Part shown: positions 8,204 through 24,105 of the stretch, in pieces
Numbering within the stretch: position 1 is the first letter of the stretch
How the letters are laid out: each line of letters begins with the position of its first letter
IMG/VR virus record: IMGVR_UViG_3300035661_000004
Strand: one strand, 5' to 3'
DNA length: 64,000 bases
Origin: a virus
Lineage: Duplodnaviria; Caudoviricetes
Notes under the pieces: generated by a model
Told to the model about the DNA's origin: nothing
Databases searched by the model: none
Seen by the model: only the letters and a program-made list of their open reading frames with translations
Program-made: the position numbers and the translations under genes

Positions 8204-8208
8204 TCAGC

Positions 8209-8214: not shown

Positions 8215-8549
8215 TGCGGACCAGGAATGTTTGCTTCATTGATGTATCGAAGCACGTCCTCTGGCGTAGTTGAGGTGTACTCGACCGCGTAATCCTTGTC
8301 AACGTCGTCGACGTGAGCCATGGGTGCACCTTTACTTGGTACATGTGCCCATAGTGCACAAAGATCAGCGCCCACAGAGGCTTATTGTTGACAGTCTTGA
8401 GCTTGACATCACCTGATGTCCGTGAAGAAGGCATCTTCTATACAAAGGATCATAGTAAGGAGATCGCTATTCACACATGTGATGCTGCGTTGGGACATGC
8501 AAAGGACATGTAGCGACAACTCAGTTTTGCACAGATTCCTCCGCAATCC

Positions 8550-8555
8550 TAAATA
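8550..8555 (+). promoter_or_regulatory. Late promoter TAAATA
   Basis: TAAATA-gcctcat-ATG(8563). Confidence 0.65.
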
Positions 8556-8562
8556 GCCTCAT

Positions 8563-9192: not shown

Positions 9193-9195
9193 CCT

Positions 9196-9368
9196 ATGCT
9201 AGGCTTCAACGTAACACCCGAAGGCGGTATATCCTTAAGCGGGGCTTCAACTTCTACCCAACAGCCGAGTGGGGTACTTCCCGCGGCTTCAGGTTCTCCC
9301 TGGGTAAGAAGCTCATCTTCGTGCGTTGGAGCGTCAAGCTAAGCAAGCTTATCGTGAGGTTCGGATGA
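9196..9368 (+). pseudogene. Small phage protein with one frameshift
   Basis: MLGFNVTPEGG in one frame joins ILKRGFNFYPTAEWGTSRGFRFSLGKKLIFVRWSVK in another, near 9228. Confidence 0.45.
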
Positions 9369-9787
9369 AGCTGGCTGAAATCTTATCCAAGGCTGACTTG
9401 CTAAAGGCTCAACAGGACTTCATCGACACGTTTCCGGATGGCTGGAGCTTCAAGATCACAAATGATGGTAAGCTTGAAGCATCGGTAGAGGATGATACCA
9501 CTCCGATGTATGCCACAGAGGATGAGATCGGGCTGCCTGATCAAAGCGTCAAGTCAGCACCTCGAGCTCGAGCTGAAATTGAGGCCGACTACAAGAAACG
9601 GAAGATTGACGTCAAGGTTACCGGCGGCAAGGTGGTGCGCGGATATCTTGAGGACGCGCAGCTTGAGTTCCCCTCTTATACTGCCGCATTCGAGTACTAC
9701 GTGCGAGACTATGCCTGGAACCAATACGGTAACTCATTCGTAGCCGATGATATCTGGGCTCGCATTAATGAGCTGACCGCATCATGA
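9365..9787 (+). CDS. QQ-helix family protein (tandem paralog 1)
   Basis: MKLAEILSKADLLKAQQDFIDTFPDGWSFK. The ATG at 9365 overlaps the preceding TGA. Confidence 0.75.
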   Translation: MKLAEILSKADLLKAQQDFIDTFPDGWSFKITNDGKLEASVEDDTTPMYATEDEIGLPDQSVKSAPRARAEIEADYKKRKIDVKVTGGKVVRGYLEDAQLEFPSYTAAFEYYVRDYAWNQYGNSFVADDIWARINELTAS

Positions 9788-10182
9788 AGCTCGACCGCCT
9801 GCTTGAAGCATCGCCTGACAAGAAGCGACTGCTCAAGATGCAGCAAGACTTCATCGACACGTTCCCTGACGACTGGGACTTCAAGCTCCAGAGCGACGGT
9901 GGCCTGAAGGTCACAAAGGCCAATGACGGTCCTTGCTACCAACTAGACAAGATCTTCTACAACCCTTACAACACGCGCATCTCCCAAGACGAGTGGGAGG
10001 AGGTCATTCGGAAACGTTTTGAAGAGGTCATGGAACAGCATGACCTTCCAGCCATCGATGTGACCTTTGAAAATGTCCACCCTGCCATCACTATCTGCGA
10101 GGCCAATGTTCAGTATAAGTCATATGCTGATGCATTTTATGTAGCAATTCTCGAAGAAGGTAGTTGGGACGCCTGGGGGTAA
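9784..10182 (+). CDS. QQ-helix family protein (tandem paralog 2), probably extends to 10267 past a G-run frameshift
   Basis: MKLDRLLEASPDKKRLLKMQQDFIDTFPDDWDFK. The shifted frame after the G5 run reads EPGDFGADNILEFIER, aligning with FVADDIWARINE of paralog 1. Confidence 0.7.
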   Translation: MKLDRLLEASPDKKRLLKMQQDFIDTFPDDWDFKLQSDGGLKVTKANDGPCYQLDKIFYNPYNTRISQDEWEEVIRKRFEEVMEQHDLPAIDVTFENVHPAITICEANVQYKSYADAFYVAILEEGSWDAWG

Positions 10183-10256
10183 TGAGCCTGGGGATTTCGG
10201 TGCTGATAACATCTTGGAATTCATCGAGCGACAAATCAAAAACGGAAACATCAAAC

Positions 10257-10841
10257 ATGACAATTGACCTCTTTGAACAAGCACTCAGCCGCGCCATGCT
10301 CTATGAGGTAGGCGGCTTCTGGAACCTCGAGACGCCGGGTGTGCGAGAAGGCCTGATCAAGACCCAAGCCCAACGTAAGGCCGTAGGCTATACGAATGAC
10401 CCGGATGACCACGGCGGTGAGACCAAGTTCGGCGTTGCTAAGGCGGCCAACCCAGACCTCAACATCGCAGCGCTAGACTGGGAAGGCGCTAAGCGTGTCT
10501 ACATGAAGCGCTACTGGCTGCCAGGCGACTGTCAAGACATGCCTAAGCTGGTAGCCCTAATGCACTTTGACGGGTGCGTCAACCACGGCGTTGGGCGGGC
10601 CGCAACCATGCTGCAAAAGGCTGTCGGCGCTACGCCAGACGGTGACATTGGGCCAGCCACCCTCAACAAGGTCAAGGCGCTCGACCAGCTGGTCGTCTGC
10701 AACAAGATCGCTGAAGCTCGTACCGCTTTCTATCGGTCAATTGTAGAGCACAACCCTGTGCAAGCGAAGTATTTGAACGGTTGGCTGCGCCGGATTAATG
10801 AAACTCTACAGTACGTCAAGATTCAAGCATCAAAGGGATAA
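10257..10841 (+). CDS. Endolysin, glycosyl hydrolase family 108 with C-terminal peptidoglycan-binding domain
   Basis: GYTNDPDDHGGETKFGV, FDGCVNHGVGRA, DGDIGPATL, KYLNGWLRR. Start taken at MTIDLFEQ. Confidence 0.9.
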   Translation: MTIDLFEQALSRAMLYEVGGFWNLETPGVREGLIKTQAQRKAVGYTNDPDDHGGETKFGVAKAANPDLNIAALDWEGAKRVYMKRYWLPGDCQDMPKLVALMHFDGCVNHGVGRAATMLQKAVGATPDGDIGPATLNKVKALDQLVVCNKIAEARTAFYRSIVEHNPVQAKYLNGWLRRINETLQYVKIQASKG

Positions 10842-10846
10842 AATAT

Positions 10847-11422
10847 ATGACCACCGTCAAGCACCCGCTAAGCGCAGGCATCCTGCACCCACTACAAGTC
10901 AATCGGTTTCGTGCTGTCTTCAAGACCCCCGAAGGTGAAGCATTGCCGTACGGTGACCCGTTGACCGCTCAGCTAGTTCGTACGTCTGAGTTTGGCCTCT
11001 ACAAAGGCATTGCGGTGGTCATTGAAGAGGACATCACCGGCCATGCGGGTCGTGCGGTGCAACAGCTTACCAAGCTGTCTAACTTCACGCTCGACATTGA
11101 GTACTTAGACGGCAATAACACAGTGATCAAGACCGCATCCTTCATCGGCTGTAAGGTTAGCAACACGCTGTATAGCGGCCTAGACTATGCAGGTGGGAAA
11201 AGCTCAGTTGGCGAGGTACTTCGCCTCTCTGTGCCGCGCTGGGAGGGTAAGAAGTTTGACGAGCTGGCAGCTGAGCATCCTACAGCTGCCACGCTGATCG
11301 CCTTTCTCAAGGGAGCACAGCTTGAAGTGATCGCCGATCGTGACGGCAAGCGTGGCATCGCAGAGGTCACTTTGACTATCAACTACGGCGACTTGGCTGT
11401 CACTTGGGCCGATCTCGGCTAA
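10847..11422 (+). CDS. Tail tube (gp19-like) paralog
   Basis: HPLQVNRFRAVF...LTAQLV...IEEDITG...IEYLDGNN...FIGCKV...LDYA...EVTLTINYGD follows the tube-protein pattern. Confidence 0.55.
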   Translation: MTTVKHPLSAGILHPLQVNRFRAVFKTPEGEALPYGDPLTAQLVRTSEFGLYKGIAVVIEEDITGHAGRAVQQLTKLSNFTLDIEYLDGNNTVIKTASFIGCKVSNTLYSGLDYAGGKSSVGEVLRLSVPRWEGKKFDELAAEHPTAATLIAFLKGAQLEVIADRDGKRGIAEVTLTINYGDLAVTWADLG

Positions 11423-11425
11423 ATA
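11420..11425 (+). promoter_or_regulatory. Late promoter TAAATA
   Basis: Overlaps the upstream TAA stop and lies 8 nt before ATG 11434. Confidence 0.55.
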
Positions 11426-11433
11426 TTGACATC

Positions 11434-11799
11434 ATGTTTCAGCTGCTTGAATCGCTCTTAGAATTTCTCGACTCGAAGGGTGGTGTCCCTACCGAGCAAG
11501 ACCTGACGAACGTCAGGGCTTACAAGGACCTGGTCAGCACGTGGCCAAAGCTCGAGAAGCAGCTGAAGCTTGCTTGGAACGGCGATGCACGTGAGATGAG
11601 CCGGGACGGCCACAAGACAGCCGAAGGCGAGAACGTCTACATCTTCCCAAAGTTGCTGAAGGTCTCCAGCCTTGAGAAGTATGACCCCGACTTTAAGCTG
11701 ACGATGCCAGCGAAGCGGTGCATCGCTGAGCTGTTCACGCTCTTCTGCGATAAGTTCAAGATCGCCAACCGGCGCAACACGAACTGGATGGAGCGTTAA
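11434..11799 (+). CDS. Hypothetical protein
   Basis: MFQLLESLLEFLDSKGG..., 121 aa from ATG 11434. Confidence 0.65.
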   Translation: MFQLLESLLEFLDSKGGVPTEQDLTNVRAYKDLVSTWPKLEKQLKLAWNGDAREMSRDGHKTAEGENVYIFPKLLKVSSLEKYDPDFKLTMPAKRCIAELFTLFCDKFKIANRRNTNWMER

Positions 11800-12107
11800 G
11801 GCTTCTTAGCCTTGTTGGCCTCTTCGGCTTCCTTCACCTGCTTGACATACAGCTCGGCGATTCGCCGCAACTGAGACTCAAGCAGCACCGCCCGCATCTC
11901 TGAGTCAAACATCCACCGCGCTACAGCCCGGTCATCCTTGCGTAGCTCATCGGCCGTAAGCGCAGGGACAGGGGCAGGAACGGTCAGCAGCTCTTGCGGA
12001 ATTGGCGTGACTACGCGCTCGATGCGCACCATCACAGGTTGCTCAGGCTTGGGCGTGCAGCAACCTGTCAACGCGAGCAGGAGGACTAATGTCAGGGCTC
12101 TCATCAC
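11796..12107 (-). CDS. o-spanin (Rz1-like lipoprotein)
   Basis: Signal peptide and lipobox LALTGC, Pro-rich linker, immediately downstream of the i-spanin. Confidence 0.85.
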   Translation of the reverse strand: MMRALTLVLLLALTGCCTPKPEQPVMVRIERVVTPIPQELLTVPAPVPALTADELRKDDRAVARWMFDSEMRAVLLESQLRRIAELYVKQVKEAEEANKAKKP

Positions 12108-12511
12108 TTCGCTCCTTGGTCACGTGCTTGCTGGATCGCCGTCACCGCGTCGACGATGTTCGGTGGCACAGGCGAGGCCTGCTTGGTAGCGATGCGCTTG
12201 CGGGCGTCCGCAAGGCCAGCCTTAGCGACTGACAAGTCAGTCTTGACGCCTTCAAGGGCTTTGATGGCTAATGCTTGATCAGCCTGCAGCTTTGCCAGCT
12301 CAGCCAAGTTTGAGTCATTGACCGCCATCGCTGTCTGAAGACTTAGCTTCAACGTGGCATTGTCAGCCTGCACGCGCTGAACGATGGCTACCTCGTCATC
12401 GAGCTTGCTTTGAAGGCTGTGCACCTTGAACCAGACGCCACCGCTAATTAAAGCCGCAATTAGTCCGAAGAGCACAAATCGGTTGCCGAGAAGGGAGAGG
12501 AGGAAAGGCAT
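12104..12511 (-). CDS. i-spanin (Rz-like)
   Basis: From ATG 12511: one N-terminal TM helix (FVLFGLIAALISGGVWF) followed by a coiled coil. Overlaps the o-spanin. Confidence 0.8.
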   Translation of the reverse strand: MPFLLSLLGNRFVLFGLIAALISGGVWFKVHSLQSKLDDEVAIVQRVQADNATLKLSLQTAMAVNDSNLAELAKLQADQALAIKALEGVKTDLSVAKAGLADARKRIATKQASPVPPNIVDAVTAIQQARDQGAK

Positions 12512-12529
12512 ATATGTATGTGTTAAGAG

Positions 12530-12550
12530 CCGCCTGTCAGTGACAGGCGG
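12530..12550. terminator. Perfect 9-bp hairpin between holin and spanins
   Basis: CCGCCTGTC-AGT-GACAGGCGG with only a weak U tract (CTCTT) on the minus strand. Confidence 0.45.
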
Positions 12551-12560
12551 TGATGCGAGC

Positions 12561-12920
12561 TTACTCGCCGTCCTTCTTCGTGGCAGCGCGGGACTCTTCA
12601 CGAGCACCCTTGATCTCGTCAGAGATCTTAGCGTCCGAGTTGAAGCCAGCATCGATTGCGAAGCCTGTAACAAAGCCTGTGTACAGGGTTGCCCAGAAGC
12701 TCATGTCAGCGTTGACGATGTCGCCTGCAAGGGCTCCGATCATCGCGAAGAGGAAGACGATGACCGTGTAAAGGGTAGCTGCCAGGTTTTCCTTGCCGTA
12801 CCAGTCAAACAAGCCGACGTCGGTCTCCTTGCGTAGGTACTTCTTCAGATAGTGGGCGAAGCCGCCAAACATGCCACAGGCAATGAAGGCGATTTGATTG
12901 GTGTAAGGTGTGATATCCAT
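12561..12920 (-). CDS. Holin
   Basis: 119 aa with three hydrophobic helices and a charged C-terminus, upstream of the spanins and 5 nt after TAAATA. Confidence 0.75.
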   Translation of the reverse strand: MDITPYTNQIAFIACGMFGGFAHYLKKYLRKETDVGLFDWYGKENLAATLYTVIVFLFAMIGALAGDIVNADMSFWATLYTGFVTGFAIDAGFNSDAKISDEIKGAREESRAATKKDGE

Positions 12921-12924
12921 GCCG

Positions 12925-13347
12925 CTATTTAGCTGAAAGCGGCTTCTTTGTACGATACCAGCCTAGGGTTCTGCCGCTGGCTTGAGCCGCCGCGATCATG
13001 GCGTCATTGGTGACATGCACGCCTGAGTAGAGCGCTGCCGCACCCTTGCGAATTGCTTGCTGCTCAACGAAGTGGATGAGCTGCTTGTAGATGCCTTGTT
13101 TGCGGTGCTCTTCAGCCACCGCAGAGAACAGCACCCACGCCGCACGCTTAGGAGGGTCATAGCTCCAGACCGACGCGCCGATCACCTGGTCACCCAACAG
13201 CGCATAGGCTACCAGAGAACCGTTCGTGAACGGCAAGTCATAGTCTGCGTGGCCTGCCTTGACGAGAGCGAGGTACTCCTCGAGCACGAAGACGAAGGCC
13301 TTCGAATGCGCAAGCGAGTCCTCGCTGACAACTTTAAGGAGCTGCAT
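12925..13347 (-). CDS. GNAT N-acetyltransferase
   Basis: AVAEEHRKQGIYKQL motif A (R/QxxGxG/A), 140 aa. Confidence 0.85.
   Translation of the reverse strand: MQLLKVVSEDSLAHSKAFVFVLEEYLALVKAGHADYDLPFTNGSLVAYALLGDQVIGASVWSYDPPKRAAWVLFSAVAEEHRKQGIYKQLIHFVEQQAIRKGAAALYSGVHVTNDAMIAAAQASGRTLGWYRTKKPLSAK
12926..12931 (-). promoter_or_regulatory. Late promoter TAAATA
   Basis: TAAATA-gcggc-ATG(12920). Confidence 0.65.
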
Positions 13348-14317
13348 AGAGCCTTGCCTCGCCGCTCTTAAGGCCTTCGATGAAGGTCTCGAGCGTCACG
13401 ATGATCTTCTGGTCTAGCGGCTTGAACTGACGCGTCACGATGTTCATCAAGGCTTGCCCCTCTGACACCAGGTCATTAGCGTTCTCAAAGCCTGTATATT
13501 TCATCGCTTGCACCAGCTCAGGGAACTGCTCGACATACATGCATGGCTTGATGAAGTAGCTAAAGCAGGTCCATGATTGGGCGATGCCAGGCTTGATCGA
13601 GTCAAATGACGAGTAGACAGCTTGATGAGCCAACCGCAAACCCTTGACAGCCGGGTGGTCAAGGTAAGAGAGGATCAATTCAGGCGAGTACATGAAGAAC
13701 TTCGTGCAGCCCTCGATCCCGTACTTGATCAGGTGCTGTTGAATCGGCGTAGGGCCGAAGGAGGTAACAATCGGGTCACCTTCTAAGCTCGAACCCTTTG
13801 ACAGGACCATGTCGCCGCCAGCCATGATGAAGGCGTGGGTGTCCTTGAATAGCTCGATCAAGTAAAGCTGGGCTAGCACTCGAGCATTGGTCAAGCAGTG
13901 CTCAGCGGCAAGCTGTTGGCCTCGCCCGTCATAGAACTTTTGCAGGTCTAGGTCAATCAGCAATGGCTTGAGGTCAAACTTTCGACAGAACTCAAATGCT
14001 TGCTTGATGTCATGCTCGTTACGGATCCCACCCTTCGGACCCCGTATGTGCATGATGACCGGCTCAAACAGAATCTTGCGGTCCAGAAGCGAGAGGCAAA
14101 CCGCTTGCGAGTCCCCGCCGCCGCTCAAGCCCACACGAATAGGCTTGGTGAATTGGTTAGCAAGGTCCTCTACGGTGTTACCGCACTCTTCGCGAAACGA
14201 CCTGACCTCACGAGTGACACCCGCTACCTCAACGGCGAACTTACCGTCGACGATTGGGTCATTGTGCCACTGGCCATTCCACCCCCACTTGTAGTGGTTA
14301 TCCTTGCTGTATTGCAT
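13334..14317 (-). CDS. Adenine nucleotide alpha-hydrolase (PP-loop) ATP pyrophosphatase 2
   Basis: RVGLSGGGDSQAV PP-loop and IMAGGD. Start taken at MQYSKDNHY, overlapping the upstream stop by 20 nt. Confidence 0.75.
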   Translation of the reverse strand: MQYSKDNHYKWGWNGQWHNDPIVDGKFAVEVAGVTREVRSFREECGNTVEDLANQFTKPIRVGLSGGGDSQAVCLSLLDRKILFEPVIMHIRGPKGGIRNEHDIKQAFEFCRKFDLKPLLIDLDLQKFYDGRGQQLAAEHCLTNARVLAQLYLIELFKDTHAFIMAGGDMVLSKGSSLEGDPIVTSFGPTPIQQHLIKYGIEGCTKFFMYSPELILSYLDHPAVKGLRLAHQAVYSSFDSIKPGIAQSWTCFSYFIKPCMYVEQFPELVQAMKYTGFENANDLVSEGQALMNIVTRQFKPLDQKIIVTLETFIEGLKSGEARLYAAP

Positions 14318-14828
14318 GCTTCTTCCAGTAGCTGTGACGCTTGCTGCCTGGCGTCCACGGCAGCTTAACGTTAAAGTTGTATGCAACCCACGAAACAAAG
14401 GTGTTGCAGTTGTTGGCAAAGAGGTGAAACCCCGTAGTTACCTTTGGGTAGTCATTGACTACGTCGAGCACGTCTAACAGCGCCGCGTCGCGTACGGTAG
14501 CCAGCAGCCTAGGCTTGTGGCCAAACCAGCGTTGGCCGGCATGCCTGTCAGAGGCGAGCACTACCTGCTCAAGAGGTGCGACTGGCCGCCGAATGTATGA
14601 CCTAAATGAGACCTCTTGGTAGTCTAGCGTCTCAGCGCTGCTTACTTCAAAGACTGTATGCACGCCGTTTCGCACATAAGCCACATATGAATGCTGTCCA
14701 CCCAGTCTTCCCTTCAAGCCAAACGTGCGCGCACGCATGAAGTGCAAGCCGTCAGGCAGCTCCAGCTCGATGTTCACAGCTTGGTCTTGCCAGCGGCCGA
14801 AGAGCGTGTCATGGAGAAGGGCTATCAT
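14298..14828 (-). CDS. Permuted papain-like (PPPDE/LRAT/DUF3750-type) amidase or acyltransferase
   Basis: GQHSYVA His precedes FANNCNTFVSW Cys, the permuted NlpC/P60 order. Start taken at MIALLHD. Confidence 0.65.
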   Translation of the reverse strand: MIALLHDTLFGRWQDQAVNIELELPDGLHFMRARTFGLKGRLGGQHSYVAYVRNGVHTVFEVSSAETLDYQEVSFRSYIRRPVAPLEQVVLASDRHAGQRWFGHKPRLLATVRDAALLDVLDVVNDYPKVTTGFHLFANNCNTFVSWVAYNFNVKLPWTPGSKRHSYWKKHAIQQG

Positions 14829-15663
14829 GAGGAGACATCTTGTAGTAGTTGACGTGCTGCCTATCATAAGCCGCCTGCCAGCTTCCACGGTCGGTGTCCC
14901 AGTCACCCGTCGGTACAGGGTCATGGATGAAGTGCCCGTGACGGTCCTCACCCTGCACCCACAATGTCGACTCGGGTGCGAAGTTAGCAATCGGCTTAAC
15001 ATGGCCCGCGGCGAAGATCATACCGCACGCCAGGCGCGGCTCTGAGCTTGTGTTCGACGACGAGCCATGAACTATGTAAGGCGAATGCATCGTAATGTGG
15101 CCTGCTGGCACCTCCGCTGACATGAGGCGCCGCGGGCGCTTGCCAGTCTCAGGCTCAACAGCCGTCTGACCGCGCATCAGGAGGTTCGACTCGCTCCGCA
15201 CGTCATGGTGCTCAAGCTGCTTCTTATCCTTGTGCGAGCGTAGCCGGTACCTGATCGCGCCGCTCTCGCAGGTCACGTCGTTGAACGCCAGCCAGACCGT
15301 GACCGCATCCTTCGGCGCGAAGTTCCAGTAGGTTGCGTCTTGGTGGTAGGACACGATCTTGCCGTCATTGGGCTCCTTGACCCAGAACAGGGTGTCCCAG
15401 CAGTGGAAGTCATCGCCCAGCACCGCCCCGACATAGTGCCTAATCGCCGCTGACTTGACAATCTCAGCCATCCACGGGAAGAGCACCTGGCTCTTGCAGC
15501 GGTAGTCGGAGGCCATCAAATTGCGGTCAGAGATCTCAGCAAGCAGGTGCTGACGGTAGACCGCAACCTGCTCATCCGTGAAGACGCGCAGCGGCCAAAC
15601 AGCTCCGATCTCGTCAAACTCTCGCTTAACAGCTTCTGGGTTCAGGAGGTAGAGGTCGGTCAT
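14809..15663 (-). CDS. PhyH-family Fe(II)/2OG dioxygenase
   Basis: SYHQDATYW (HxD), AVTVWLAFND, HSPYIVHGSSSN, RLAC. ATGA-coupled to the desaturase. Confidence 0.9.
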   Translation of the reverse strand: MTDLYLLNPEAVKREFDEIGAVWPLRVFTDEQVAVYRQHLLAEISDRNLMASDYRCKSQVLFPWMAEIVKSAAIRHYVGAVLGDDFHCWDTLFWVKEPNDGKIVSYHQDATYWNFAPKDAVTVWLAFNDVTCESGAIRYRLRSHKDKKQLEHHDVRSESNLLMRGQTAVEPETGKRPRRLMSAEVPAGHITMHSPYIVHGSSSNTSSEPRLACGMIFAAGHVKPIANFAPESTLWVQGEDRHGHFIHDPVPTGDWDTDRGSWQAAYDRQHVNYYKMSPHDSPSP

Positions 15664-16445
15664 TGTCGAATTGCTCGGATCCACAGCATTGATGGGTCAA
15701 ACTCATACCACCGCTTCGTGCCGAAGTCAGGATTGCTGGCGTCGCCGTGATGGTTGTTGTGCAAGGCTTGCCCCCAAGTGATGAGGCTTAACAGCGGGCG
15801 GTTGACCGAGAAGTCCTTGGTCTGATAGTTACGGTACGTGCCGATGCCGCCCGTGTGACCGAGCACATTGACAGCGGCCTCTTGGTGGATAGCCCAGACC
15901 TGAGCGAGCGTCAAAGCCAATAACGGGACCGGCGAAGCGATGAGCCAAAGCAGGGCGAAGAAGGCCCACGTGCCCCAGAGAACTGAGTGGTAGTAGGTCA
16001 CCTGCCACTGCCATGTAGGCTCACGGAGGAAGTCAATGCCTGAACGCAACGAGACCTTGTTGACGATGTCCTTGTCAAAGGCATAGCCTTGGTACGCGGT
16101 CCACAGGCTATGAGCGTGCGGCGAGTGGAGGTCCTTCTCGGTGTCGGAGTAGCGGTGATGGACGCCCCGATGGAGCGCAACCCAGAACAGCGCATGGCCA
16201 TGACAAGCAAGCAAGCCGAAGAACAGCATCGCCTGCTCCCACGCCTTGCTGGTCTTGAACGACCGATGTGAGAAGAAGCGGTGCAAGCCGACAGCTACAC
16301 CCAAGCCGCTAATCAAGCAGTAGAAGCCGAACGTCATAAGCAAAGTTGACGCTGGCAAGCCATAGCGCCACAGCAAGGCTACCGCAATCACGTGAGGCGG
16401 CAGCCAAACTTTCCAAAAGTGCGAGCTCGTAAGCATATCCCTCAT
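15660..16445 (-). CDS. Membrane fatty acid desaturase (delta-9-like) 2
   Basis: His boxes HRFFSH, HRGVHH, HNNHH plus hydrophobic segments. Confidence 0.9.
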   Translation of the reverse strand: MRDMLTSSHFWKVWLPPHVIAVALLWRYGLPASTLLMTFGFYCLISGLGVAVGLHRFFSHRSFKTSKAWEQAMLFFGLLACHGHALFWVALHRGVHHRYSDTEKDLHSPHAHSLWTAYQGYAFDKDIVNKVSLRSGIDFLREPTWQWQVTYYHSVLWGTWAFFALLWLIASPVPLLALTLAQVWAIHQEAAVNVLGHTGGIGTYRNYQTKDFSVNRPLLSLITWGQALHNNHHGDASNPDFGTKRWYEFDPSMLWIRAIRQ

Positions 16446-17362
16446 TCTGCTACCTCTATGTTCTCTAGCTCCGCCCAGACCTCCTTGATCGGGCGAGAGA
16501 AGTCATCCATCCAGATTGTACCGTACCGCTCTTGACATAGCATTTTCCAACGCTGATTGATCGGCACGACTACGTCAAGCATGTTTTCAAAGCCAGTATA
16601 CTTTTGCCGAGCTTCGAGCGTCGGGAACGCCCCTTGATAGTACTTGACCTTGAGCATCTCTGAGCTCCAGATCTGCGGCCGCCACATGTTAGCCACCAGG
16701 AGCTGCATGGTCGGCGTCCTGATGAAGGCATTGGTCAGGTTTGTGTCGATCCACCCGTTCGGCTTCGAGTTAATGCCGTAATAGGTCAGGAACTTGGTCA
16801 CTGAATAGTGGCGCTCGCTGTAGTACAGGTTCCACACGCGCTCGGGACCGCTGTCATCAGCGACCAGGCCTGGCTCGTCATAGCAATGGATGAACACGCG
16901 GTCAGGCGAGTTCAGGTCCAGCATCATCTTCAGCTGCCCGGTGTAAGCGAGCTCGGTGGTTTGACAGTTGGCCGCAATCTCGAACTGCTCGTCGCTGCCG
17001 TACCAGCTCTTGAGGTCGAAGAAGTGCTCATACGGCGTGACGTCCCGACGAGCGCACCAACGCCTAGCCCAGTAGAGGTCATGATTGTTTGCGCCGTTAT
17101 TCATGATCGTCGGCGTAAACTTGACTCCAGCGGTCCACAGGCTCTCACAGATCCACTCGCTGTCAAGGCCGCCGCTGAAGAGGACCATCAGCTCCTTGTC
17201 AGGATATGTAGCAGCGAGGTCCTTCGCTGCGGCCAAGGACTCTTGTCTCAACGACATCGGCGGGCGAGTCGGGCGCTCGAACCAGACCTGGTAGCACTGC
17301 TCATTGTTGGTGCGCGGAATGTCGGCTACGCCGTCATACCCTTTGTAGATGCGTGATGTCAT
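16442..17362 (-). CDS. Adenine nucleotide alpha-hydrolase (PP-loop) ATP pyrophosphatase 1
   Basis: LMVLFSGGLDSEWI PP-loop. Paralogous to 13334..14317, sharing the C-terminal FP.L...KYTGFEN. Confidence 0.8.
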   Translation of the reverse strand: MTSRIYKGYDGVADIPRTNNEQCYQVWFERPTRPPMSLRQESLAAAKDLAATYPDKELMVLFSGGLDSEWICESLWTAGVKFTPTIMNNGANNHDLYWARRWCARRDVTPYEHFFDLKSWYGSDEQFEIAANCQTTELAYTGQLKMMLDLNSPDRVFIHCYDEPGLVADDSGPERVWNLYYSERHYSVTKFLTYYGINSKPNGWIDTNLTNAFIRTPTMQLLVANMWRPQIWSSEMLKVKYYQGAFPTLEARQKYTGFENMLDVVVPINQRWKMLCQERYGTIWMDDFSRPIKEVWAELENIEVAE

Positions 17363-18131
17363 GGCTGATATGCTTTATGAGATGGTAGCCTGGGTCACAA
17401 GCTTGAGGCGTGTCAACAGCAAAGTTAGCGGAGCCTGGAAAGGCGTGGTGGGTGTTGTGGAGGGTTTGCCCCCAAGTCAGCCACGCAAGCCACCGAATGT
17501 TCCGGCTATTGTCCTTGGTCAGGTGGTCAGCCTTGCCGAATCGCCTGTCATGACAGAAGCTGTTGATGATCGCCTCTTGATGGATACTTATCATCCCCGC
17601 GATAGCGGCTCCCGCTGCAATAGCACGAGTCGGTTCGAAACAGGCTAGGATGGCGAGCAAAGCCCACCAGCTCCACAGCAAGGTCGTGTACCGGCGATGT
17701 GCAAGTTTGCACCACTTGTCTTTGATTAGGTCGCTCGCAAGCGACATGGACACGTCAGTAGGCTTGATCGAGAAGATCCAGCCCATGTATGCGTGCCAGA
17801 ACCCTTTTGTCGGCGTGTGGATGTCAGGTAGCTTGTCTGAGTTTGGGTGATGCAACCGATGTAAAGCGACCCAGAAGATGACAGAGCCTTGGCCCGCCAG
17901 CGAGCCGCCGATAAGCATGACATAGCGCCAGAACGCGTTCGTGGTAAACGCTCGATGCGTGAAGTATCGGTGAAACCCGACGCTCACGCCTAAGCCTGAG
18001 AACCACAGATTGAGGGCCAAGAAGGAAGCGAGAAGTCCCCAAGACATGCTATGAACGGCATAAAATAGACCGGCAAGGCCTACAGCGTGCGCGGGTAGGT
18101 GTATCCTAGTGACGTGCGGATTAGGCGACAT
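17334..18131 (-). CDS. Membrane fatty acid desaturase (delta-9-like) 1
   Basis: His boxes HRYFTH, HRLHH, HNTHH and INSFCH. Confidence 0.9.
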   Translation of the reverse strand: MSPNPHVTRIHLPAHAVGLAGLFYAVHSMSWGLLASFLALNLWFSGLGVSVGFHRYFTHRAFTTNAFWRYVMLIGGSLAGQGSVIFWVALHRLHHPNSDKLPDIHTPTKGFWHAYMGWIFSIKPTDVSMSLASDLIKDKWCKLAHRRYTTLLWSWWALLAILACFEPTRAIAAGAAIAGMISIHQEAIINSFCHDRRFGKADHLTKDNSRNIRWLAWLTWGQTLHNTHHAFPGSANFAVDTPQACDPGYHLIKHISHDITHLQRV

Positions 18132-18708
18132 AGGAACGGCGGATTAGCAGCGGGATGGCAAGCACAGTCTCATGCATGACATGCTCCCAGAGGATCGGGT
18201 CAGCTACCTTCTTGTACGGCTCGACCGCGCATACGTCCTCGATGGTGTACTTGCGCAAGTCCTCCGTGCCGTCTCGCCAGAAGGACCGGTAGGCTCGTGC
18301 CCACTTCGCAGGGAAAGCGTAGTAGAACTTCGTGACGTTTAAAGATTCATAAAATTTCAAGCACTCCGACAAGCACTCTCTTAGCTCTTTGGGGTCACCG
18401 TCAGAGACCATCAAGTCGAGCACCCAGAAGTCAACGTGCGCGTAGGCGCAGATGAAGGCTGTCAACCGGTCACCGTCAAACTTGCCTACAGCGTAGTGCG
18501 GTGCATGCTGGTAACGGGCGTGCACGCTGAGCAGTGGAGCTGTCGTGATTGCGGTCACCGCAGCGCCGGCGTGAGTTGTCTTAGTGGCGCGCAGCTTACG
18601 CATGGCTCGCCAGTCAGAAGGTAGCAGCTGTCTAAGCACGTGTGTAGACCGCTCCGTTGAACCGAGGGGCGACACGAGAGAAGACCGTGCGGTAGACAGG
18701 GTGGTCAA
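18121..18708 (-). CDS. GNAT-fold-like protein (start possibly GTG 18639)
   Basis: LRQLLPSDWRAM...AVGKFDGDRLTAFICAY...WVLDLMV has the GNAT strand/helix order but no clear motif A. Confidence 0.5.
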   Translation of the reverse strand: MTTLSTARSSLVSPLGSTERSTHVLRQLLPSDWRAMRKLRATKTTHAGAAVTAITTAPLLSVHARYQHAPHYAVGKFDGDRLTAFICAYAHVDFWVLDLMVSDGDPKELRECLSECLKFYESLNVTKFYYAFPAKWARAYRSFWRDGTEDLRKYTIEDVCAVEPYKKVADPILWEHVMHETVLAIPLLIRRSYVA

Positions 18709-19066
18709 TCATCATGCCAGGGGTAACAGACAGCACGTGAGTCCAACCCGCCGGCGGCTCAACGCCTTCCTTCAAGAAGATTTGCGTGGGCAGAGCGAGC
18801 TTGTCAGCGACCAGGTCAAGGTGCGCGATGCTGCCGAACCAGTGATGAATGTAGGCTCCGCCCTTCTCATGCATGATCGTATAGAGCGCCGCGGCTACAG
18901 TCATGTCAGTCCCTGTGTCGGTAACCTCATAGATGCCGGTCGTGTCGGTCGGGGTCAGGAAGTACTGTGTCAGCTGAGTGTGCGTCGCGAGCAGTGGATC
19001 ATGCTGCATCAGGTACCGTTGGATTCGGCGATGGTCAAGACGAGTGAGGGTTTTGGCTTCGTACAT
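18632..19066 (-). CDS. Hypothetical protein within the tailoring operon
   Basis: 144 aa, coupled to both neighbours. Possibly a degenerate GNAT fold. Confidence 0.65.
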   Translation of the reverse strand: MYEAKTLTRLDHRRIQRYLMQHDPLLATHTQLTQYFLTPTDTTGIYEVTDTGTDMTVAAALYTIMHEKGGAYIHHWFGSIAHLDLVADKLALPTQIFLKEGVEPPAGWTHVLSVTPGMMIDHPVYRTVFSRVAPRFNGAVYTRA

Positions 19067-19069
19067 AGC

Positions 19070-19777
19070 TTAGAATGGGTGAATGACGGTCTTCATCTTG
19101 AGCATATTTAGCTCAACAAAGCTCCCCACGTATCGACTGTGGTTGAGGGCTACCAGCTGGAGCAAAGCTGTAATGAGCCAGGCTACCTGCAAGTTGTGAA
19201 ACGCCAGCGGCAGGCTGTAGTTAGCCGTGTCAAGGTAGCTCTCGTTGAGACGAACGAATGTGCGTACGTTTAGTTTCGTCCAGGGAAAGCACATTGGGCC
19301 AAGCCAGAGCCTCATACGATTGCAGATGACCGGCAGATACGTCTTGCCCGGCATGTCAGGGAGGTCAAGGTAAGAGTCAGCGAAGACCAACGTAAGCTTG
19401 GCGTCATCAGCCGGATACATCCCGTTCTCTTCGAGGCCGTCAGCTACCAGCTGACCGACGCTGTTCTTAGTCAGGTCGATGAAATTGTACGTGACGTGCT
19501 TGAGCTGTTCTTGCACGTCGGCCCAGGCGGCCCCGTGGAGCTCCCAGCCTGCCATGCTCGGATGTGGGTCAAAGGCAAGAAAGCCTCGAGCGTTGTACGC
19601 TTCGAGCAGCTCCATCTCGTCATCGTCGAGGTCAGTAACGTCAATGCCGACTACCAAGCGGTCGAGGAACTTTTGCCTGTCAAGCGGCTCAACATGCTTG
19701 ACGTTTTCGCTTACGAGCAAAGCCTCGCCGACACCTGTGCTTTTCAAGAGCCACTGAGGCTTCAATTTGATGATCAT
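19070..19777 (-). CDS. RRE plus TOMM cyclodehydratase scaffold (E1/ThiF-like) domain protein
   Basis: The N-terminus KLKPQW...ALLVSEN...FLDRL...ELLEAYNARGFL is RRE-like. LTLVFADSYLD...YLPV...LWLGPMCFP matches the TOMM C-protein pattern LTVVLTDDYL...PWL.V...WIGPLF.P. The Zn-binding CxxC is absent. Confidence 0.55.
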   Translation of the reverse strand: MIIKLKPQWLLKSTGVGEALLVSENVKHVEPLDRQKFLDRLVVGIDVTDLDDDEMELLEAYNARGFLAFDPHPSMAGWELHGAAWADVQEQLKHVTYNFIDLTKNSVGQLVADGLEENGMYPADDAKLTLVFADSYLDLPDMPGKTYLPVICNRMRLWLGPMCFPWTKLNVRTFVRLNESYLDTANYSLPLAFHNLQVAWLITALLQLVALNHSRYVGSFVELNMLKMKTVIHPF

Positions 19778-19790: not shown

Positions 19791-19817
19791 AAAGAGGGGC
19801 CGAATTCGGCCCATCTT
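19791..19817 (-). terminator. Terminator-like hairpin
   Basis: GGGCCG-AATT-CGGCCC with AAGA/TCTT extension, then CTCTTT on the minus strand, right after the fibre stop codon. Confidence 0.6.
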
Positions 19818-19819
19818 GT

Positions 19820-21391
19820 TTACTCAAACGAGCCAGAACCGTTGACGTAACCGTCGATACCCTGGTTGTACATGGTAGAGGTGATAGTAGCCGTGGTCCA
19901 TGCGTGATGATCATTGCCGTTAGTAACGGCAAAGTCGTGAGCGTTACCGCACATGTAGAAGTACATGGTGATAGTTCCTGCTGAATTCATCGTTGCCGTG
20001 ATGATGTTAGCGCGACCTGAGTAGCTGATCGGATACAGGTGACCCGTTACGGATGCATCTGCATGTACCGGAATCGAGTTGTTGCCCGTGCCTGGATCGT
20101 AGTCATATGCAATGCCACCGTCAGTACCGAAATGCACGGTTCCGTTAGGAGCGAGCGTGACGGTGTCACCTGTGTAGAGGTTTTGGATATTGACAGTGTT
20201 AACACCCGATGCCAAGCTGATCCTAGCAGCTTCGCCGTAGAACGTGCTTTGGTAGTAGGCATTGATGTGGACCACGCCGCCCGGAACGCCAGACACGCTA
20301 ACGCTCGCTGACCGTGGTTGCAGGAGCGAGAGCGCGTTAAGCGTCAGCGTGCCAGTTCCTGTTGTCGCGTACGTGAAGTCTACAACGCCAACGCCGCTCG
20401 AGTTCATCGAGACCGTAGTAGCTGTAATGCCTGACGGACCGCTCAAGCCAGAGCCAGGAGCCAGGTTGACGTTGACAGGCAAGCTCGTAGCGTTCGGCGT
20501 GCCCGTGAAGGTCAGGTGGAAGACCACGTTTGTGCCAAGCGTGGTCGAAGTCGGCGTAGCAGACATAGCCGTGAAGCCTGTCAACGTAGGTGCCGGGCTT
20601 GGAACTGGAGTTCCTGGCGACGGAGTCGGCGTTGGCGTGCCCTTGCCTGGTGGGCTTGGAGACGGGGTAGGCGTCGGTGTCGGCGTTGGGCTAGGCGCCG
20701 GAGCGTTGACTGTGATGTTGGCCGATTGGGTTGCGCCCACGGTCATGTTGGTGCCGCTATTGACAACGGCCTGCACGGTCTTGACGCCCGCTGCTGAGCT
20801 GCCAATTGTGTACGTGATGTGGCCGACACCGCTCGAGATGATCAGTGATTGCGAGACCGAACCACCAAACGTTCCGGTTAAGCCGCCCGTTGTGTTGTTG
20901 AGCGTGATGCCGGTCGTGACTGACTGGTCAACCGCAGACGTGAAGGTCAGGGTCAGGGTCGAGCTAGAGCCGGTGGTAACGCTCGACGGCGCGAACGAAG
21001 CACCAGAGAAGATGATGGCCGGCGACGGGCCTGGAGTCGGGGTAGGCGTAGGCGATGGGCCCGGAGTCGGGGTAGGCGATGGCGACGGCGACGGACCGGC
21101 TGTCGGGTGAGGCCACACTACAACCCAGTTGCCGCTGATTGTGTAGAGCAGCATCTGATTGTCAGTGCTGTTGTACCAAAGCTGACCGGTGGTCGGGTGC
21201 GGCGGAGCGCTTGAGCTGGCAAAGTGCTCAAGCAGCCTGATCAGGTTCTCCTGCACGCGCTCACCCCAGTTCGGCGCTGCTTTGCCTGTCAAGGCTAAGG
21301 ACGTGGATGAGGTATCAATGCTGCCTGCTGGCAGCGTAAACGGAGTCTTTAACGAGTCATTAGACCAGTTAAGCGTGTAGTTGAATGTCAT
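19820..21391 (-). CDS. Tail fibre/whisker-like protein with Pro-rich linkers and Ig-like domains (paralog A)
   Basis: N-terminal NWGERVQENLIRLLEHFAS...PTTGQLWYN anchor, (SP/TP)n linkers, beta-sandwich repeats. TAAATA at 21455-21460. Confidence 0.75.
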   Translation of the reverse strand: MTFNYTLNWSNDSLKTPFTLPAGSIDTSSTSLALTGKAAPNWGERVQENLIRLLEHFASSSAPPHPTTGQLWYNSTDNQMLLYTISGNWVVVWPHPTAGPSPSPSPTPTPGPSPTPTPTPGPSPAIIFSGASFAPSSVTTGSSSTLTLTFTSAVDQSVTTGITLNNTTGGLTGTFGGSVSQSLIISSGVGHITYTIGSSAAGVKTVQAVVNSGTNMTVGATQSANITVNAPAPSPTPTPTPTPSPSPPGKGTPTPTPSPGTPVPSPAPTLTGFTAMSATPTSTTLGTNVVFHLTFTGTPNATSLPVNVNLAPGSGLSGPSGITATTVSMNSSGVGVVDFTYATTGTGTLTLNALSLLQPRSASVSVSGVPGGVVHINAYYQSTFYGEAARISLASGVNTVNIQNLYTGDTVTLAPNGTVHFGTDGGIAYDYDPGTGNNSIPVHADASVTGHLYPISYSGRANIITATMNSAGTITMYFYMCGNAHDFAVTNGNDHHAWTTATITSTMYNQGIDGYVNGSGSFE

Positions 21392-21453: not shown

Positions 21454-22092
21454 TTATTTAACGCTGAACCAACCGACTACGGAGTAGCGCTTACCCTTAG
21501 TCAAGGGCGTGACCTCATGCAGGAAGCGGATGTCGGATGGGAAGAGGACCATGCCTCCCGTAGCAGGGTGCAGCTTGACAATCGAGCCATCGCTGTGATG
21601 CACCGAATGCAGCACTAGGTCGCCGCCTTCATAGTCCTCATTGAGGTACATGATGCAGGTCAGCTGCCGATGCGGCGAGGTGTACCTGAAGACGCCTTTT
21701 GCGTCGTAGTATGCGTTGTCTGTATGAGCGAGAAAGTGCCCTTTGTCAACGTCAGCGTATGACAAGAACTGAAGAGGCTCTGAGAGGAACGCCGGCTTAC
21801 CAAGCAGCGCGGTCGTGTGATGGGTGACAGCCGCTGTCATGCGCTGAGCGACCTGGGCATAAAGCTCAGGCTCAAGCTGCATGGCTTTTGAGGACCGATG
21901 GTAGGTGTCAACCACCTGCTTGTGAAGCGTCACTTCACTGTCATACACGCCCGAAGCTTGAGGGTTGCTCAAGCTTGCAATCACGCGCTGGCAAAACTCG
22001 CCGTCGAGGGTGACGGCGGTAATCACAGGTGGGTGGAACTGTGGCACGAAGTTCGCGCCGTACGGCTCTAACGAGCGGTAGTCGACGTACAT
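21454..22092 (-). CDS. Prolyl-4-hydroxylase-like 2OG-Fe(II) oxygenase
   Basis: HTD, RQLTCIMYLNEDYEGGDL, FPSDIRFLHEVTPLTKGKRYS give a complete HxD...H...R set. Confidence 0.9.
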   Translation of the reverse strand: MYVDYRSLEPYGANFVPQFHPPVITAVTLDGEFCQRVIASLSNPQASGVYDSEVTLHKQVVDTYHRSSKAMQLEPELYAQVAQRMTAAVTHHTTALLGKPAFLSEPLQFLSYADVDKGHFLAHTDNAYYDAKGVFRYTSPHRQLTCIMYLNEDYEGGDLVLHSVHHSDGSIVKLHPATGGMVLFPSDIRFLHEVTPLTKGKRYSVVGWFSVK

Positions 22093-22313
22093 TAGCGACG
22101 CGTTGCTGTGGTCAGTGACCTGATCTCGCCGTTGAGAGCTTTTGGTTCGATCAGCGCGTTGCCTAAGTCATACTCTTCAAGAATCATAGCAGGCACAACC
22201 TCAAAGACAAATGTGCCCCGATTGCCATTGCGCACGATGTTCTGCAGCTTGTAGCCCTTAACCTTCAGGTAAGCGGCGAGAATGATGTCTACTGTAGAGA
22301 AATTATTTTGCAT
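22092..22313 (-). CDS. Small conserved phage protein (DUF5659-like)
   Basis: FSTVDIILAAYLKVKGYKL...FVFE...IEPKALNGEIRSL pattern. Confidence 0.55.
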   Translation of the reverse strand: MQNNFSTVDIILAAYLKVKGYKLQNIVRNGNRGTFVFEVVPAMILEEYDLGNALIEPKALNGEIRSLTTATRR

Positions 22314-22950
22314 GATGCTTTTCCCACCTCAGCTTTGCGCTTTCGCGCATTCTTTGTCGCGTCTCTTCTGACGCGCTAGAACCGGCATTCCATGCAGGAA
22401 CGCCTGTTCTCTTTCCTTTGTTAGCCGGCTCTTTGCCTAATCGAGCTTTACTGATATTTGCTTTATGCTCTTCAGTAAATGTACGCGATGATCCAACTCT
22501 GTTGCCCATCATGAGTTGCCTCAAGATCGGATCTTGCCAAACAGCTTTAAGCTTCTCTGACCTTTTAGCTTTATTGGCTGGGTCGAGATTTGCAGATTGG
22601 AGCCCTGCTAGAATTTTATTCCGATACTGATCATCTTGCCAACGTATCAGCATCTGATCACGCGTAATGTTTGCATGCTGTCTACGCAGCCAACCATAAG
22701 CTTTATTTGAAGCAAATGATCGCGTGATGCTCATCATATGAGCAGCGTGAATCAACTTTGTAGATGGATGAATCTTAGCCAGCAAGATATGAGCTAAAAA
22801 ATGCTCTTCTGGCGTTAACGCAGCAATGTTGGAAGCATCATCGAGCCCGCCCATACATGACGGAACAATATGATGACGTTCTACATACCCTTCAATTGAC
22901 CGAGATTTTGCTCGATCGATGAGGCTCTGATATATGCGTTTGTAATCCAC
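22303..22950 (-). CDS. HNH homing endonuclease with NUMOD3-type repeats
   Basis: ERHHIVPSCMGGLDDASNIAALTPEEHFLAH. Paralog of 2419..3099, AT-rich, with its own TAAATA. Confidence 0.9.
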   Translation of the reverse strand: MDYKRIYQSLIDRAKSRSIEGYVERHHIVPSCMGGLDDASNIAALTPEEHFLAHILLAKIHPSTKLIHAAHMMSITRSFASNKAYGWLRRQHANITRDQMLIRWQDDQYRNKILAGLQSANLDPANKAKRSEKLKAVWQDPILRQLMMGNRVGSSRTFTEEHKANISKARLGKEPANKGKRTGVPAWNAGSSASEETRQRMRESAKLRWEKHHAK

Positions 22951-24093: not shown

Positions 24094-24099
24094 AGGAGC

Positions 24100-24105
24100 T
24101 ATTTA
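24100..24105 (-). promoter_or_regulatory. Late promoter TAAATA
   Basis: TAAATA-gctcct-ATG(24093). Confidence 0.65.

Follow-up and report, generated by a model that had tools for sequence, protein, structure and literature searches.

The described pathways that come closest to the gene cluster treated here are the azoline-forming pathways for peptides that are ribosomally synthesized and then post-translationally modified (RiPPs), namely the thiazole/oxazole-modified microcins (TOMMs), linear azol(in)e-containing peptides (LAPs) and cyanobactins (McbBCD, SagBCD, LynD/TruD), the lasso peptides with their B1, B2 and C proteins, the lipidated RiPPs, and the tailoring of ornithine lipids and lipid A (OlsB, OlsC, LpxO). 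Lasso cyclases comprise about 600 amino acids (aa), and asparagine-synthetase- and carbapenam-type enzymes catalyze the adenylation of a carboxylate followed by amide formation. GNAT-family acyltransferases are found in the lipidated goadvionins/lipolanthines and selidamides, whose clusters draw the acyl chain from polyketide synthase (PKS), fatty acid synthase (FAS) or acyl carrier protein (ACP) genes and additionally contain lanthionine or other class-defining enzymes. Single metabolic genes are known from phages, and simple bacteriocins from a few prophages. The subject of this study is a 64,000-nt stretch of phage DNA, IMGVR_UViG_3300035661_000004 (the window), in which ten minus-strand genes at 12925–19777, termed g1 to g10, form a tailoring cluster to which the upstream oxygenase gene c7 also belongs. 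The core of this cluster, which combines a RiPP recognition element (RRE) protein with an oxygenase, a PP-loop enzyme, GNAT-fold proteins and a membrane desaturase, is syntenic across related loci. We read it as a self-contained, late-expressed (predicted) RiPP-like lipopeptide module whose product would be a fatty-acylated, desaturated and hydroxylated peptide-type compound, a reading to which we assign slightly less than an even chance.

Results and Discussion

Gene Layout and Co-Conservation of the Cluster

Ten minus-strand open reading frames (ORFs) fill the interval from g1 down to g10 (Table 1). Under the likeliest starts, adjoining genes overlap by 4–29 nt; the exceptions are g1 and g2, which are separated by a 3-nt gap, and g2 and g3, for which the overlap is uncertain. 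The start of g8 was taken at Met57 of a 234-aa ORF, in agreement with the 178-aa call in the related locus L005, and that of g9 at Met35 (likely), while the start codon of g3 is uncertain. Relative to the L005 orthologues (78–92 % amino acid identity), every gene shows a ratio of nonsynonymous to synonymous substitution rates (dN/dS) of 0.06–0.21 at dS values of 0.6–1.4. All ten, those without a family match included, are therefore genuine coding genes under purifying selection. An earlier note, made from the letters of this DNA alone, had described ten co-oriented, mostly overlapping genes; both the ORF calls and the dN/dS values bear this out, and the gene order it gave is correct.

Pfam detects FA_desaturase twice (g4, g6), PhyH (g7) and GNAT (g10), as well as sub-threshold matches to NAD_synthase (g9) and DUF3750 (g8); searches of the cluster genes against NCBIfam and PHROGs added nothing decisive. 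The enzyme classes named in the earlier note stood up to profile and structure searches in nearly all cases. Its two desaturases exceed the PF00487 cutoff and can be refined to the stearoyl-CoA desaturase (SCD)/delta-9 type; its two PP-loop ATP pyrophosphatases are confirmed by SGGxDS motifs and, from the g5 fold, appear asparagine-synthetase-domain-like; its PhyH dioxygenase (g7) is upheld by Pfam, and its hardest call, g1 as an RRE/E1-like protein, by a structural match to LynD. The second gene, which it had listed as unknown, had to be revised: The predicted fold of g2 is that of a GNAT.

Related loci of about 20 kb were collected around g5 homologues (eight), by a scan of JGI metagenomes (one, L009) and via remote g3/g6 homologues (five), and all their proteins were clustered to define the core. 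The operon DNA matched none of 50,697 phage records, scans of IMG/VR with g5 and with the g3 alignment and of GTDB genomes with g3 returned no relative, and the JGI scan yielded the single extra locus L009. A search of phages with the g6 protein found only single desaturases at 24 % identity (Pelagibacter phage Mosig, Acinetobacter phage MD-2021a). Within the collected set, the core c7-g1-g2-g3-desaturase(g4-type)-g5 is syntenic in L001–L009 and in contig P0057, ten of the thirteen further metagenomic loci examined, with a slightly permuted gene order in L001, L007 and L009, and the lineage of the second desaturase, g6, is kept in most loci at 58–61 % identity. L010 retains c7, g1 (hhalign 95.6 %), g5, g3, a desaturase, two g9-type ligases and two GNATs, and gene sizes suggest that contig P0024 carries the g1, g5, g3 and desaturase set. 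All 14 loci, L011 and L012 among them, have the triad of PP-loop enzyme, g3 and desaturase. In L012, genes for a cupin, a PP-loop enzyme, a pair each of g3-like proteins and desaturases and a PhyH enzyme lie at 7800–13419 among small early-type genes, far from fibres; the occurrence of this compact version in a different phage suggests that the module travels as a whole. The earlier note had proposed that the block constitutes one pathway, and the neighbourhood analysis agrees with it: The core is syntenic in every related locus, and random, unlinked combinations were not found. For the outcome of this pathway, the note had named three possibilities, a modified acyl or peptide product, a decorated virion fibre or a remodelled host membrane, without choosing among them.

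Behind the core follow variable genes, namely Asp_Arg_Hydrox-type cupins, TauD, SDRs, 500-aa radical-SAM enzymes, a nitroreductase, a carbamoyltransferase, kinases and GNATs. The cluster thus ranges from the window, which represents the smallest version, to L002, L008 and a 718-kb contig, each with about 20 genes; L005 differs from the window by one extra cupin gene. The 718-kb contig (JGI 3300078620) contains the full cluster and reportedly two further similar places, and may be either a concatemer of a ~240-kb genome or a very large phage. The carriers are large, uncultured phages of virulent type that stem from sediments and microbial mats. Elsewhere, the window encodes a Phage_base_V baseplate hub, a collagen-like tail fibre, a 2843-aa ORF, a homing endonuclease and SbcCD-like nuclease genes, and a search of sequencing runs located its DNA in sediment and microbial-mat metagenomes.

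The Putative Scaffold Protein g1 and Azoline RiPP Pathways

The AlphaFold2 (AF2) model of g1, built on eight homologues, has a pLDDT of 82 and a pTM of 0.68. Foldseek aligns it in the PDB with the N-terminal RRE and E1-like domains of LynD/TruD (E 7e-12 to 8e-11; TMq 0.62–0.64), followed by weaker matches to MccB, McbB and PaaA and then to ThiF/MoeB. Its neighbours in AlphaFold DB (AFDB) are annotated as 'TOMM leader peptide-binding protein', goadsporin and SagC-type proteins; the g1 profile gave nothing significant against PDB sequences. At the position of the GxGxxG loop of E1 enzymes, the eight g1 homologues share an invariant D-x-T-x-N-x-x-G, mostly D-L-T-x-N-x-V-G. Because this segment replaces GxGxxG, g1 looks like a non-catalytic scaffold in its modelled fold. 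The gene is present in 11 of the 14 loci and probably in a twelfth (contig P0024). Complex prediction for g1 and g5 scored 0.72 in one run and about 0 in two, and is not used as evidence either way.

With the azoline RiPP pathways, the cluster shares the two-domain layout of RRE and degenerate E1-like domain that is characteristic of the C-protein and of the N-terminal half of LynD/TruD, and L002 in addition carries a nitroreductase-fold gene. By contrast, Pfam detects no YcaO among the ten cluster genes, the flanking genes, nine large ORFs of the window and the related loci, the zinc-tetrathiolate and ATP motifs are missing, and the conserved partners are instead a PP-loop ligase, GNAT-fold proteins and membrane desaturases. 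From the active E1 adenylating enzymes (MccB, PaaA, ThiF/MoeB), g1 differs by the lack of the GxGxxG loop and by a fold that is closer to LynD.

The PP-Loop Enzymes g5 and g9 and Lasso Cyclases

With 306 and 327 aa, g5 and its paralogue g9 comprise the synthetase domain alone, without an N-terminal domain. The residues S63, G64, G65, D67 and S68 are invariant across 18 sequences. The AF2 model of g5 (pLDDT 88.6) has as its top AFDB cluster a 329-aa 'asparagine synthetase domain-containing protein' (E 6e-12, TM score 0.64). Ranked by TM score, its PDB matches are human ASNS, E. coli AsnB and carbapenam synthetase (0.45–0.51), with beta-lactam synthetase at 0.33; ranked by E-value, LarE and TtuA match. 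One further AFDB neighbour contains an AsnB-like domain inside a 624-aa protein that is named as a GNAT. By their SGGxDS motifs, g5 and g9 are PP-loop enzymes, with a predicted fold that is closest to stand-alone asparagine-synthetase domains. All 17 g5 homologues (43–93 % identity) are metagenomic; g9-type copies are present in L005 and, in duplicate, in L010.

Set beside the B1, C and B2 components of lasso peptide biosynthesis, the cluster likewise has an RRE protein, a PP-loop enzyme of the asparagine-synthetase type and, in the window, g8 as a putative member of the papain superfamily. However, g5 and g9 correspond to the synthetase domain only, the phage RRE is fused to an E1-like domain, and no precursor gene was found. 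Moreover, the transglutaminase-like B2 peptidase has no counterpart, as g8 is LRAT/DUF3750-like, does not belong to the core and is restricted to the window and L005. The cluster cannot be placed in the TOMM, lasso or microcin C/pantocin families because defining features are lacking: No YcaO was found among the ORFs scanned in the window and the related loci, the AsnB-like enzymes have the synthetase domain only, the papain-like gene is not conserved and g1 lacks the nucleotide loop.

Proposed Acyl-Chain Enzymes: GNAT-Fold Proteins and Desaturases

For g2, the ESM Atlas contains a model of the exact protein (pTM 0.77) with TM scores of 0.62–0.68 to GNAT/RimI clusters; at the level of sequence, g2 has no match in Pfam, PHROG, NCBIfam or the PDB. 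It is kept in nine loci. The most conserved core protein is g3 (mean column identity 65 %), which is probably GNAT-like: Viral GNAT clusters are among its language-model neighbours, its widened profile A7 gives weak in-register matches to the GNATs 4lua (E 0.06) and 3g8w (E 0.35) in the PDB, and its sequence follows a beta4-alpha3-beta5-alpha4-like pattern with a degenerate pyrophosphate loop (S-x-G-D-P). Pfam matched neither the g3 members nor ten remote g3 homologues, hhalign found no relation between g3 and g2, and the g2 and g3 profiles returned nothing significant against PDB sequences. The g3 family is rare, with 29 representatives among 1.84 billion proteins. Homologues of g10 close the cluster in L002 and, as two copies, in L010.

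In alignments with structures of stearoyl-CoA desaturase, every di-iron ligand of g4 and of g6 falls in register. The histidine boxes of g4 read HRYFTH, HRLHH and HNTHH; for g6, the HX4H, HX3HH, NX3H and HX2HH ligands align with those of the SCD1 structures 4ymk and 4zyo (E 1e-6). A hydropathy scan shows one segment in g4 and four hydrophobic windows, corresponding to about three separate segments, in g6. Judged by these ligands, g4 and g6 are desaturases of the SCD/delta-9 type, with a regiospecificity that is predicted. Orthologues of g4 are present in all main-clade loci at 56–61 % identity, and g6-type orthologues in L001, L002 and L006–L008 as well as, at 86 %, in L005; more than 40 homologues of g6 exceed 50 % identity.

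Like the lipidated RiPP clusters, the phage cluster places GNAT-fold enzymes beside RRE-type recognition and tailoring oxygenases, and the proposed product is a fatty-acyl peptide. It differs from them by the lack of an ACP or PKS, by its two SCD-type desaturases and by its carrier, a large phage of virulent type. Ornithine-lipid and lipid A tailoring likewise combine an N-acyltransferase with PF05118-type hydroxylases and membrane di-iron enzymes, but no OlsB, OlsA or LpxO equivalog was matched, and the PP-loop ligase and RRE scaffold have no counterpart there. The desaturase or 2-oxoglutarate (2OG) oxygenase genes of cyanophages, pelagiphages and jumbo phages belong to the same superfamilies, but they are isolated, whereas here two desaturase lineages are locked into an operon of 10–20 genes together with a scaffold and ligases.

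The Oxygenases c7 and g7 and the Putative Papain-Like Enzyme g8

In L001, L002, L006, L007 and L008, the prolyl 4-hydroxylase (P4H)-like oxygenase c7 (dN/dS 0.11) is encoded directly upstream of the g1 homologue, and in L010 close upstream of it; we assign it to the cluster core because of this synteny. A general role of c7 as a collagen prolyl hydroxylase was considered and rejected, since the window and L010 alone have collagen repeats. The PhyH enzyme g7, whose sequence contains YHQD and HGSS, is confined to the window, L005 and L012. In g8 (dN/dS 0.09), a histidine (GGQHSY) is followed by NNCNTFV (NCxxF), a motif which we take to be of the LRAT type, as in phospholipid-dependent permuted papain-like acyltransferases; the g8 profile has no match among PDB sequences.

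Flanking Genes and Expression Signals

Upstream, the cluster adjoins a fibre-like gene, as the earlier note had stated. The N-terminal 90 aa of its protein account for the match to virion structural families, and the PT-rich linkers follow thereafter. Since this gene stands between c7 and g1 only in the window and L005, it represents an insertion specific to these two. The note's holin at the downstream boundary can be called so by position only: No profile backs the name, and the 119-aa membrane protein has no family match in PHROG or Pfam. Small membrane proteins also trail the cluster in L002, L008 and L010. The note had further suggested a link between the cluster and the fibre, which we find to be positional only: The L012 module is far from fibres and the fibre insertion is limited to two loci. 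The cluster does not require a fibre next to it; such adjacency is a habit of position within one clade.

The motif TAAATA, which resembles a phage late promoter, is found at 24 sites in the window against 7.2 expected and is thus about threefold over-represented. Between the fibre gene and the holin-like gene, it appears in three places: just past the c7 stop, inside g1 and just before the holin-like gene. The hairpin between the fibre gene and g1 is not followed by a strong T-run, which makes read-through plausible. From the placement of TAAATA and this hairpin, the cluster is probably read through from late transcripts, and its expression is accordingly predicted. Individual TAAATA sites (e.g., 24100, 38317, 42361 and 12926, minus strand) often lie 5–8 nt ahead of an ATG, which would imply very short or absent 5' leaders if the motif is a late promoter.

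Further observations concern the wider surroundings. Collagen-like fibres are encoded near the P4H-like oxygenase in the window (24535–25692, minus strand; GPT-type triplets) and in L010 (4679–5422; PGPPGPPGPPGPPGP near the C-terminus). The tail fibres upstream of the cluster in L001 (6969–8030) and L007 (6920–8005) end in (V/K)GSPVG repeats, and a protein upstream of the cluster in L003 contains PDAEPD(A/T)E repeats close to its C-terminus. The homing endonuclease gene (phrog_655, NUMOD3; 22303–22950, minus strand), situated between genes for 174-aa and 73-aa proteins, is absent from the same place in L005 and hence constitutes a presence/absence polymorphism of a mobile gene. Between the collagen fibre gene of the window and the next gene, 440 nt (24094–24534) contain short ORFs only; this region has no Rfam match and an ordinary folding energy (z 0.47), and Rfam matches nothing in the whole window.

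Table 1. Coordinates of the cluster genes, flanking features and small ORFs of related loci. Positions are those of the window unless a locus is named.
Feature	Description	Position	Strand	Basis
c7	P4H-like 2OG-Fe(II) oxygenase, conserved core, outside 12925–19777	21454..22092	-	Pfam 2OG-FeII_Oxy_3 E 7e-19 (69 bits); PHROG 61
Fibre-like protein	523 aa, between c7 and g1; context, may not belong to the pathway	19820..21391	-	phrog_15511/14394; PT-rich linkers
Hairpin	GC-rich, GGGCCGAATTCGGCCC, between fibre gene and g1	19797..19812	-	Terminator-like scan
g1	RRE (winged-helix) and E1-like putative scaffold, no Gly-rich ATP loop	19070..19777	-	AF2 model, Foldseek, alignment
g2	GNAT-fold protein (predicted), no sequence-level family	18632..19066	-	ESM Atlas model
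g3	Probable GNAT-like acyltransferase, start uncertain	18121..18708	-	Language-model neighbours, weak profile matches
g4	SCD-type (delta-9) membrane desaturase (predicted), core lineage adjoining g3	17334..18131	-	Pfam FA_desaturase E 2.5e-11
g5	PP-loop ATP pyrophosphatase, stand-alone asparagine-synthetase-type synthetase domain (predicted), core	16442..17362	-	SGGLDS motif, AF2 fold
g6	Second SCD-type desaturase (predicted), separate conserved lineage	15660..16445	-	Pfam E 1.8e-9
g7	PhyH-family Fe(II)/2OG dioxygenase, accessory	14809..15684	-	Pfam PhyH E 1.3e-20, 75 bits (cutoff 22)
g8	Putative LRAT/NlpC-P60-like (permuted papain-like) enzyme, accessory	14298..14834	-	DUF3750 E 5e-5, 24.4 bits (cutoff 25)
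g9	Second PP-loop enzyme (predicted), g5 paralogue (27 % identity), accessory	13334..14317	-	SGGGDS; weak NAD_synthase/nadE matches
g10	GNAT N-acetyltransferase, accessory, last gene	12925..13347	-	Pfam Acetyltransf_1 E 2.7e-10
Membrane protein	119 aa, holin-like by position, downstream boundary	12561..12920	-	Hydrophobic segment 44–72
Small ORFs	57–85 aa, candidate precursor or partner peptides	L002:9742-9975, L003:3580-3753, L008:10932-11108, L006:8550-8807, L010:6835-7014		Adjoin PP-loop gene

Proposed Pathway and Alternative Readings

A RiPP-like lipopeptide pathway could proceed in five steps. To begin with, g1 would dock the recognition segment of a ribosomal peptide or protein and present it to the enzymes in the manner of an azoline-RiPP C-protein. 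In the next step, g5 may adenylate a carboxylate of the substrate, either an Asp/Glu side chain or the C-terminus, and couple it to ammonia or an amine, thereby filling the ATP-using role of YcaO in TOMM or of the AsnB-like cyclase in lasso biosynthesis. The GNAT-fold pair g2/g3 would then move an acyl group, probably a fatty acyl group, onto an amine, and the membrane-bound g4 and g6 would put double bonds into that chain at the membrane. Finally, the P4H-like oxygenase, fast-changing Fe/2OG hydroxylases and other enzymes would decorate the product; in the window, this set would comprise the PhyH enzyme g7, g8 as an LRAT-like acyltransferase or peptidase, the second ligase g9 and the GNAT g10. 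As the decorating set changes fast, we propose that different phages make different variants. The accessory families (Asp_Arg_Hydrox, TauD, PhyH, radical SAM, nitroreductase, SDR, GNAT) are typical of peptide tailoring and speak for this pathway, as does the conserved fold of g1. Going further, the cluster might define a new class of ribosomal peptide or protein modification, in which an RRE scaffold operates with a PP-loop ligase in place of YcaO and the product is N-acylated and SCD-desaturated; we put this forward tentatively and give it a realistic, though less than even, chance. Phages would in that case shuffle up to ~15 oxygenases, reductases and radical-SAM enzymes, and the lipopeptide that is released or displayed at lysis would differ chemically from one phage lineage to the next.

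In L002, L003, L004 and L008, the PP-loop gene is adjoined by small ORFs whose body is conserved and whose tail, acidic or rich in hydroxy residues, varies; comparable ones exist in L006 and L010. The ORFs listed in Table 1 share a [ST][IV]xDPxL segment, and four of them also contain an HPTLTxxDL helix. These small ORFs of the relatives are candidate precursor or partner peptides. Dispersed small proteins with a 'QQ helix' were also considered as RRE leaders and dropped, as the motif occurs only in the window and is absent from the 20-kb related loci; a pattern search places this 'L-K-x-QQ-x-L-I-E' helix family at 9398, 9829, 38492, 38851, 43456, 43753, 44414, 50753 and 51121 of the window.

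Several points weigh against the peptide pathway. The window contains no Cys/Ser/Thr-rich precursor ORF in or beside the cluster, its genes leave no room for a precursor, and neither a hidden Markov model of the relatives' small-ORF family nor a motif search for its DP-x-L segment found a match there. No universal precursor peptide was found, no protease or transporter is conserved across the loci, and the cluster has neither an acyl carrier protein nor an acyl-CoA ligase. We know of no membrane desaturase of the SCD type in a described RiPP pathway, and the assignment of g3 as a GNAT is weak. Furthermore, L012 lacks a recognizable g1; since it nevertheless has the triad, a leader-binding scaffold is not indispensable. 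Finally, we infer all pathway functions from folds and synteny.

Some of these points would suit a non-ribosomal lipid chemistry, that is, the synthesis of an N-acyl amino acid or aminolipid (ornithine-lipid-like) or a late remodelling of the host membrane; this is the main rival, to which we assign a lower probability than to the peptide pathway. In such a chemistry, g3 would serve as the synthase of an N-acyl amino acid, amidation or extension of the head group would fall to the AsnB-like enzyme, desaturases and LpxO/OlsC-type hydroxylases would act on the acyl chains, and g1 would be a scaffold that has lost leader binding. The invariant triad of PP-loop enzyme, GNAT-like protein and SCD-type desaturase, which L012 holds without g1, fits this picture, as do the desaturases as bona fide acyl-chain enzymes, the LRAT-type motif of g8 (if the presumed family link holds), the end of the cluster at lysis genes in the window, L002, L008 and L010, and the lack of a precursor in the window. 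The family PF05118, which also takes in the lipid hydroxylases LpxO and OlsC, is moreover common among the accessory genes. However, the RRE and E1-like fold of g1 is intact and under purifying selection in the loci that carry it, a conservation that is difficult to account for unless g1 has a peptide or protein ligand; Pfam and NCBIfam scans detected no OlsB/OlsA-type (PF13444) or lipid A enzyme signature, and peptide tailoring is the more usual setting for TauD, radical SAM and nitroreductase genes. Such a protein ligand could also be a virion component: The cluster follows the last fibre gene in 12 of the 14 loci, is co-oriented with late structural genes and in two loci encloses a fibre gene, and its P4H-like and Asp/Asn-hydroxylase families act on proteins. 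A fibre or structural protein would then be recognized by g1 through a segment and be hydroxylated, acylated or isopeptide-linked, with an effect on host recognition or stability, and the window and L010 do encode collagen-like fibres. We nonetheless regard decoration of the virion as improbable, given that the L012 module stands far from any fibre, that the adjoining fibres come from unrelated families without a common segment, that most loci have no collagen repeats and that a soluble fibre is an unlikely substrate for desaturases embedded in the membrane. As the end of the structural module commonly hosts accessory genes, the position by itself counts as weak evidence.

In another reading, no single pathway exists, and independent auxiliary metabolic genes (morons) piled up between the tail and lysis modules. 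The extra cupin gene of L005 shows that accessory content varies even between close relatives, and other phages have lone desaturases and 2OG oxygenases. Yet the neighbourhood of six genes is retained in phages with orthologues at only 35–60 % identity, the triad persists at 20–30 % identity and in a different genomic context, and overlapping stop and start codons indicate coupled expression, so that a chance accumulation is largely refuted by the synteny and in our estimate very improbable. Least probable of all is a hypermodification of phage DNA or tRNAs by the PP-loop enzymes and oxygenases. TilS, QueC and the tRNA thiolases do belong to the PP-loop class, LarE and TtuA are among the fold matches of g5, and L002 and L006 carry P-loop kinase-like genes (Ploopntkinase3-like in L002), but the best fold match of g5 is an asparagine-synthetase domain rather than QueC/TilS. 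Membrane desaturases, an RRE scaffold and GNAT-fold proteins are foreign to known base-modification routes, and Pfam and NCBIfam detected no glycosylase, DpdA or 5-hydroxymethyldeoxyuridine (hmdU)-pathway genes (hmdU kinase, aGPT-Pplase) in the window cluster.

Conclusion

None of the described pathways corresponds to the cluster, which resembles RRE-guided tailoring but is borne by an unusual carrier. No comparable phage cluster was found in the literature: A review of phages and natural products and a metagenomic study of RiPPs and phages deal with host-encoded compounds only. A conserved tailoring pathway of 10–20 genes in large phages of lytic type would be new. If the RiPP-like lipopeptide reading is true, phages produce elaborate secondary metabolites or lipidated peptides in the course of infection, and the cluster would add an enzyme logic in which an RRE scaffold, a PP-loop ligase, GNAT-fold acyltransferases and membrane desaturases cooperate without YcaO. 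The core genes are compact enough for direct heterologous expression. That tailoring genes turn over rapidly from one close relative to another suggests an arms race, and the product therefore probably acts on hosts, competitors or defence systems.

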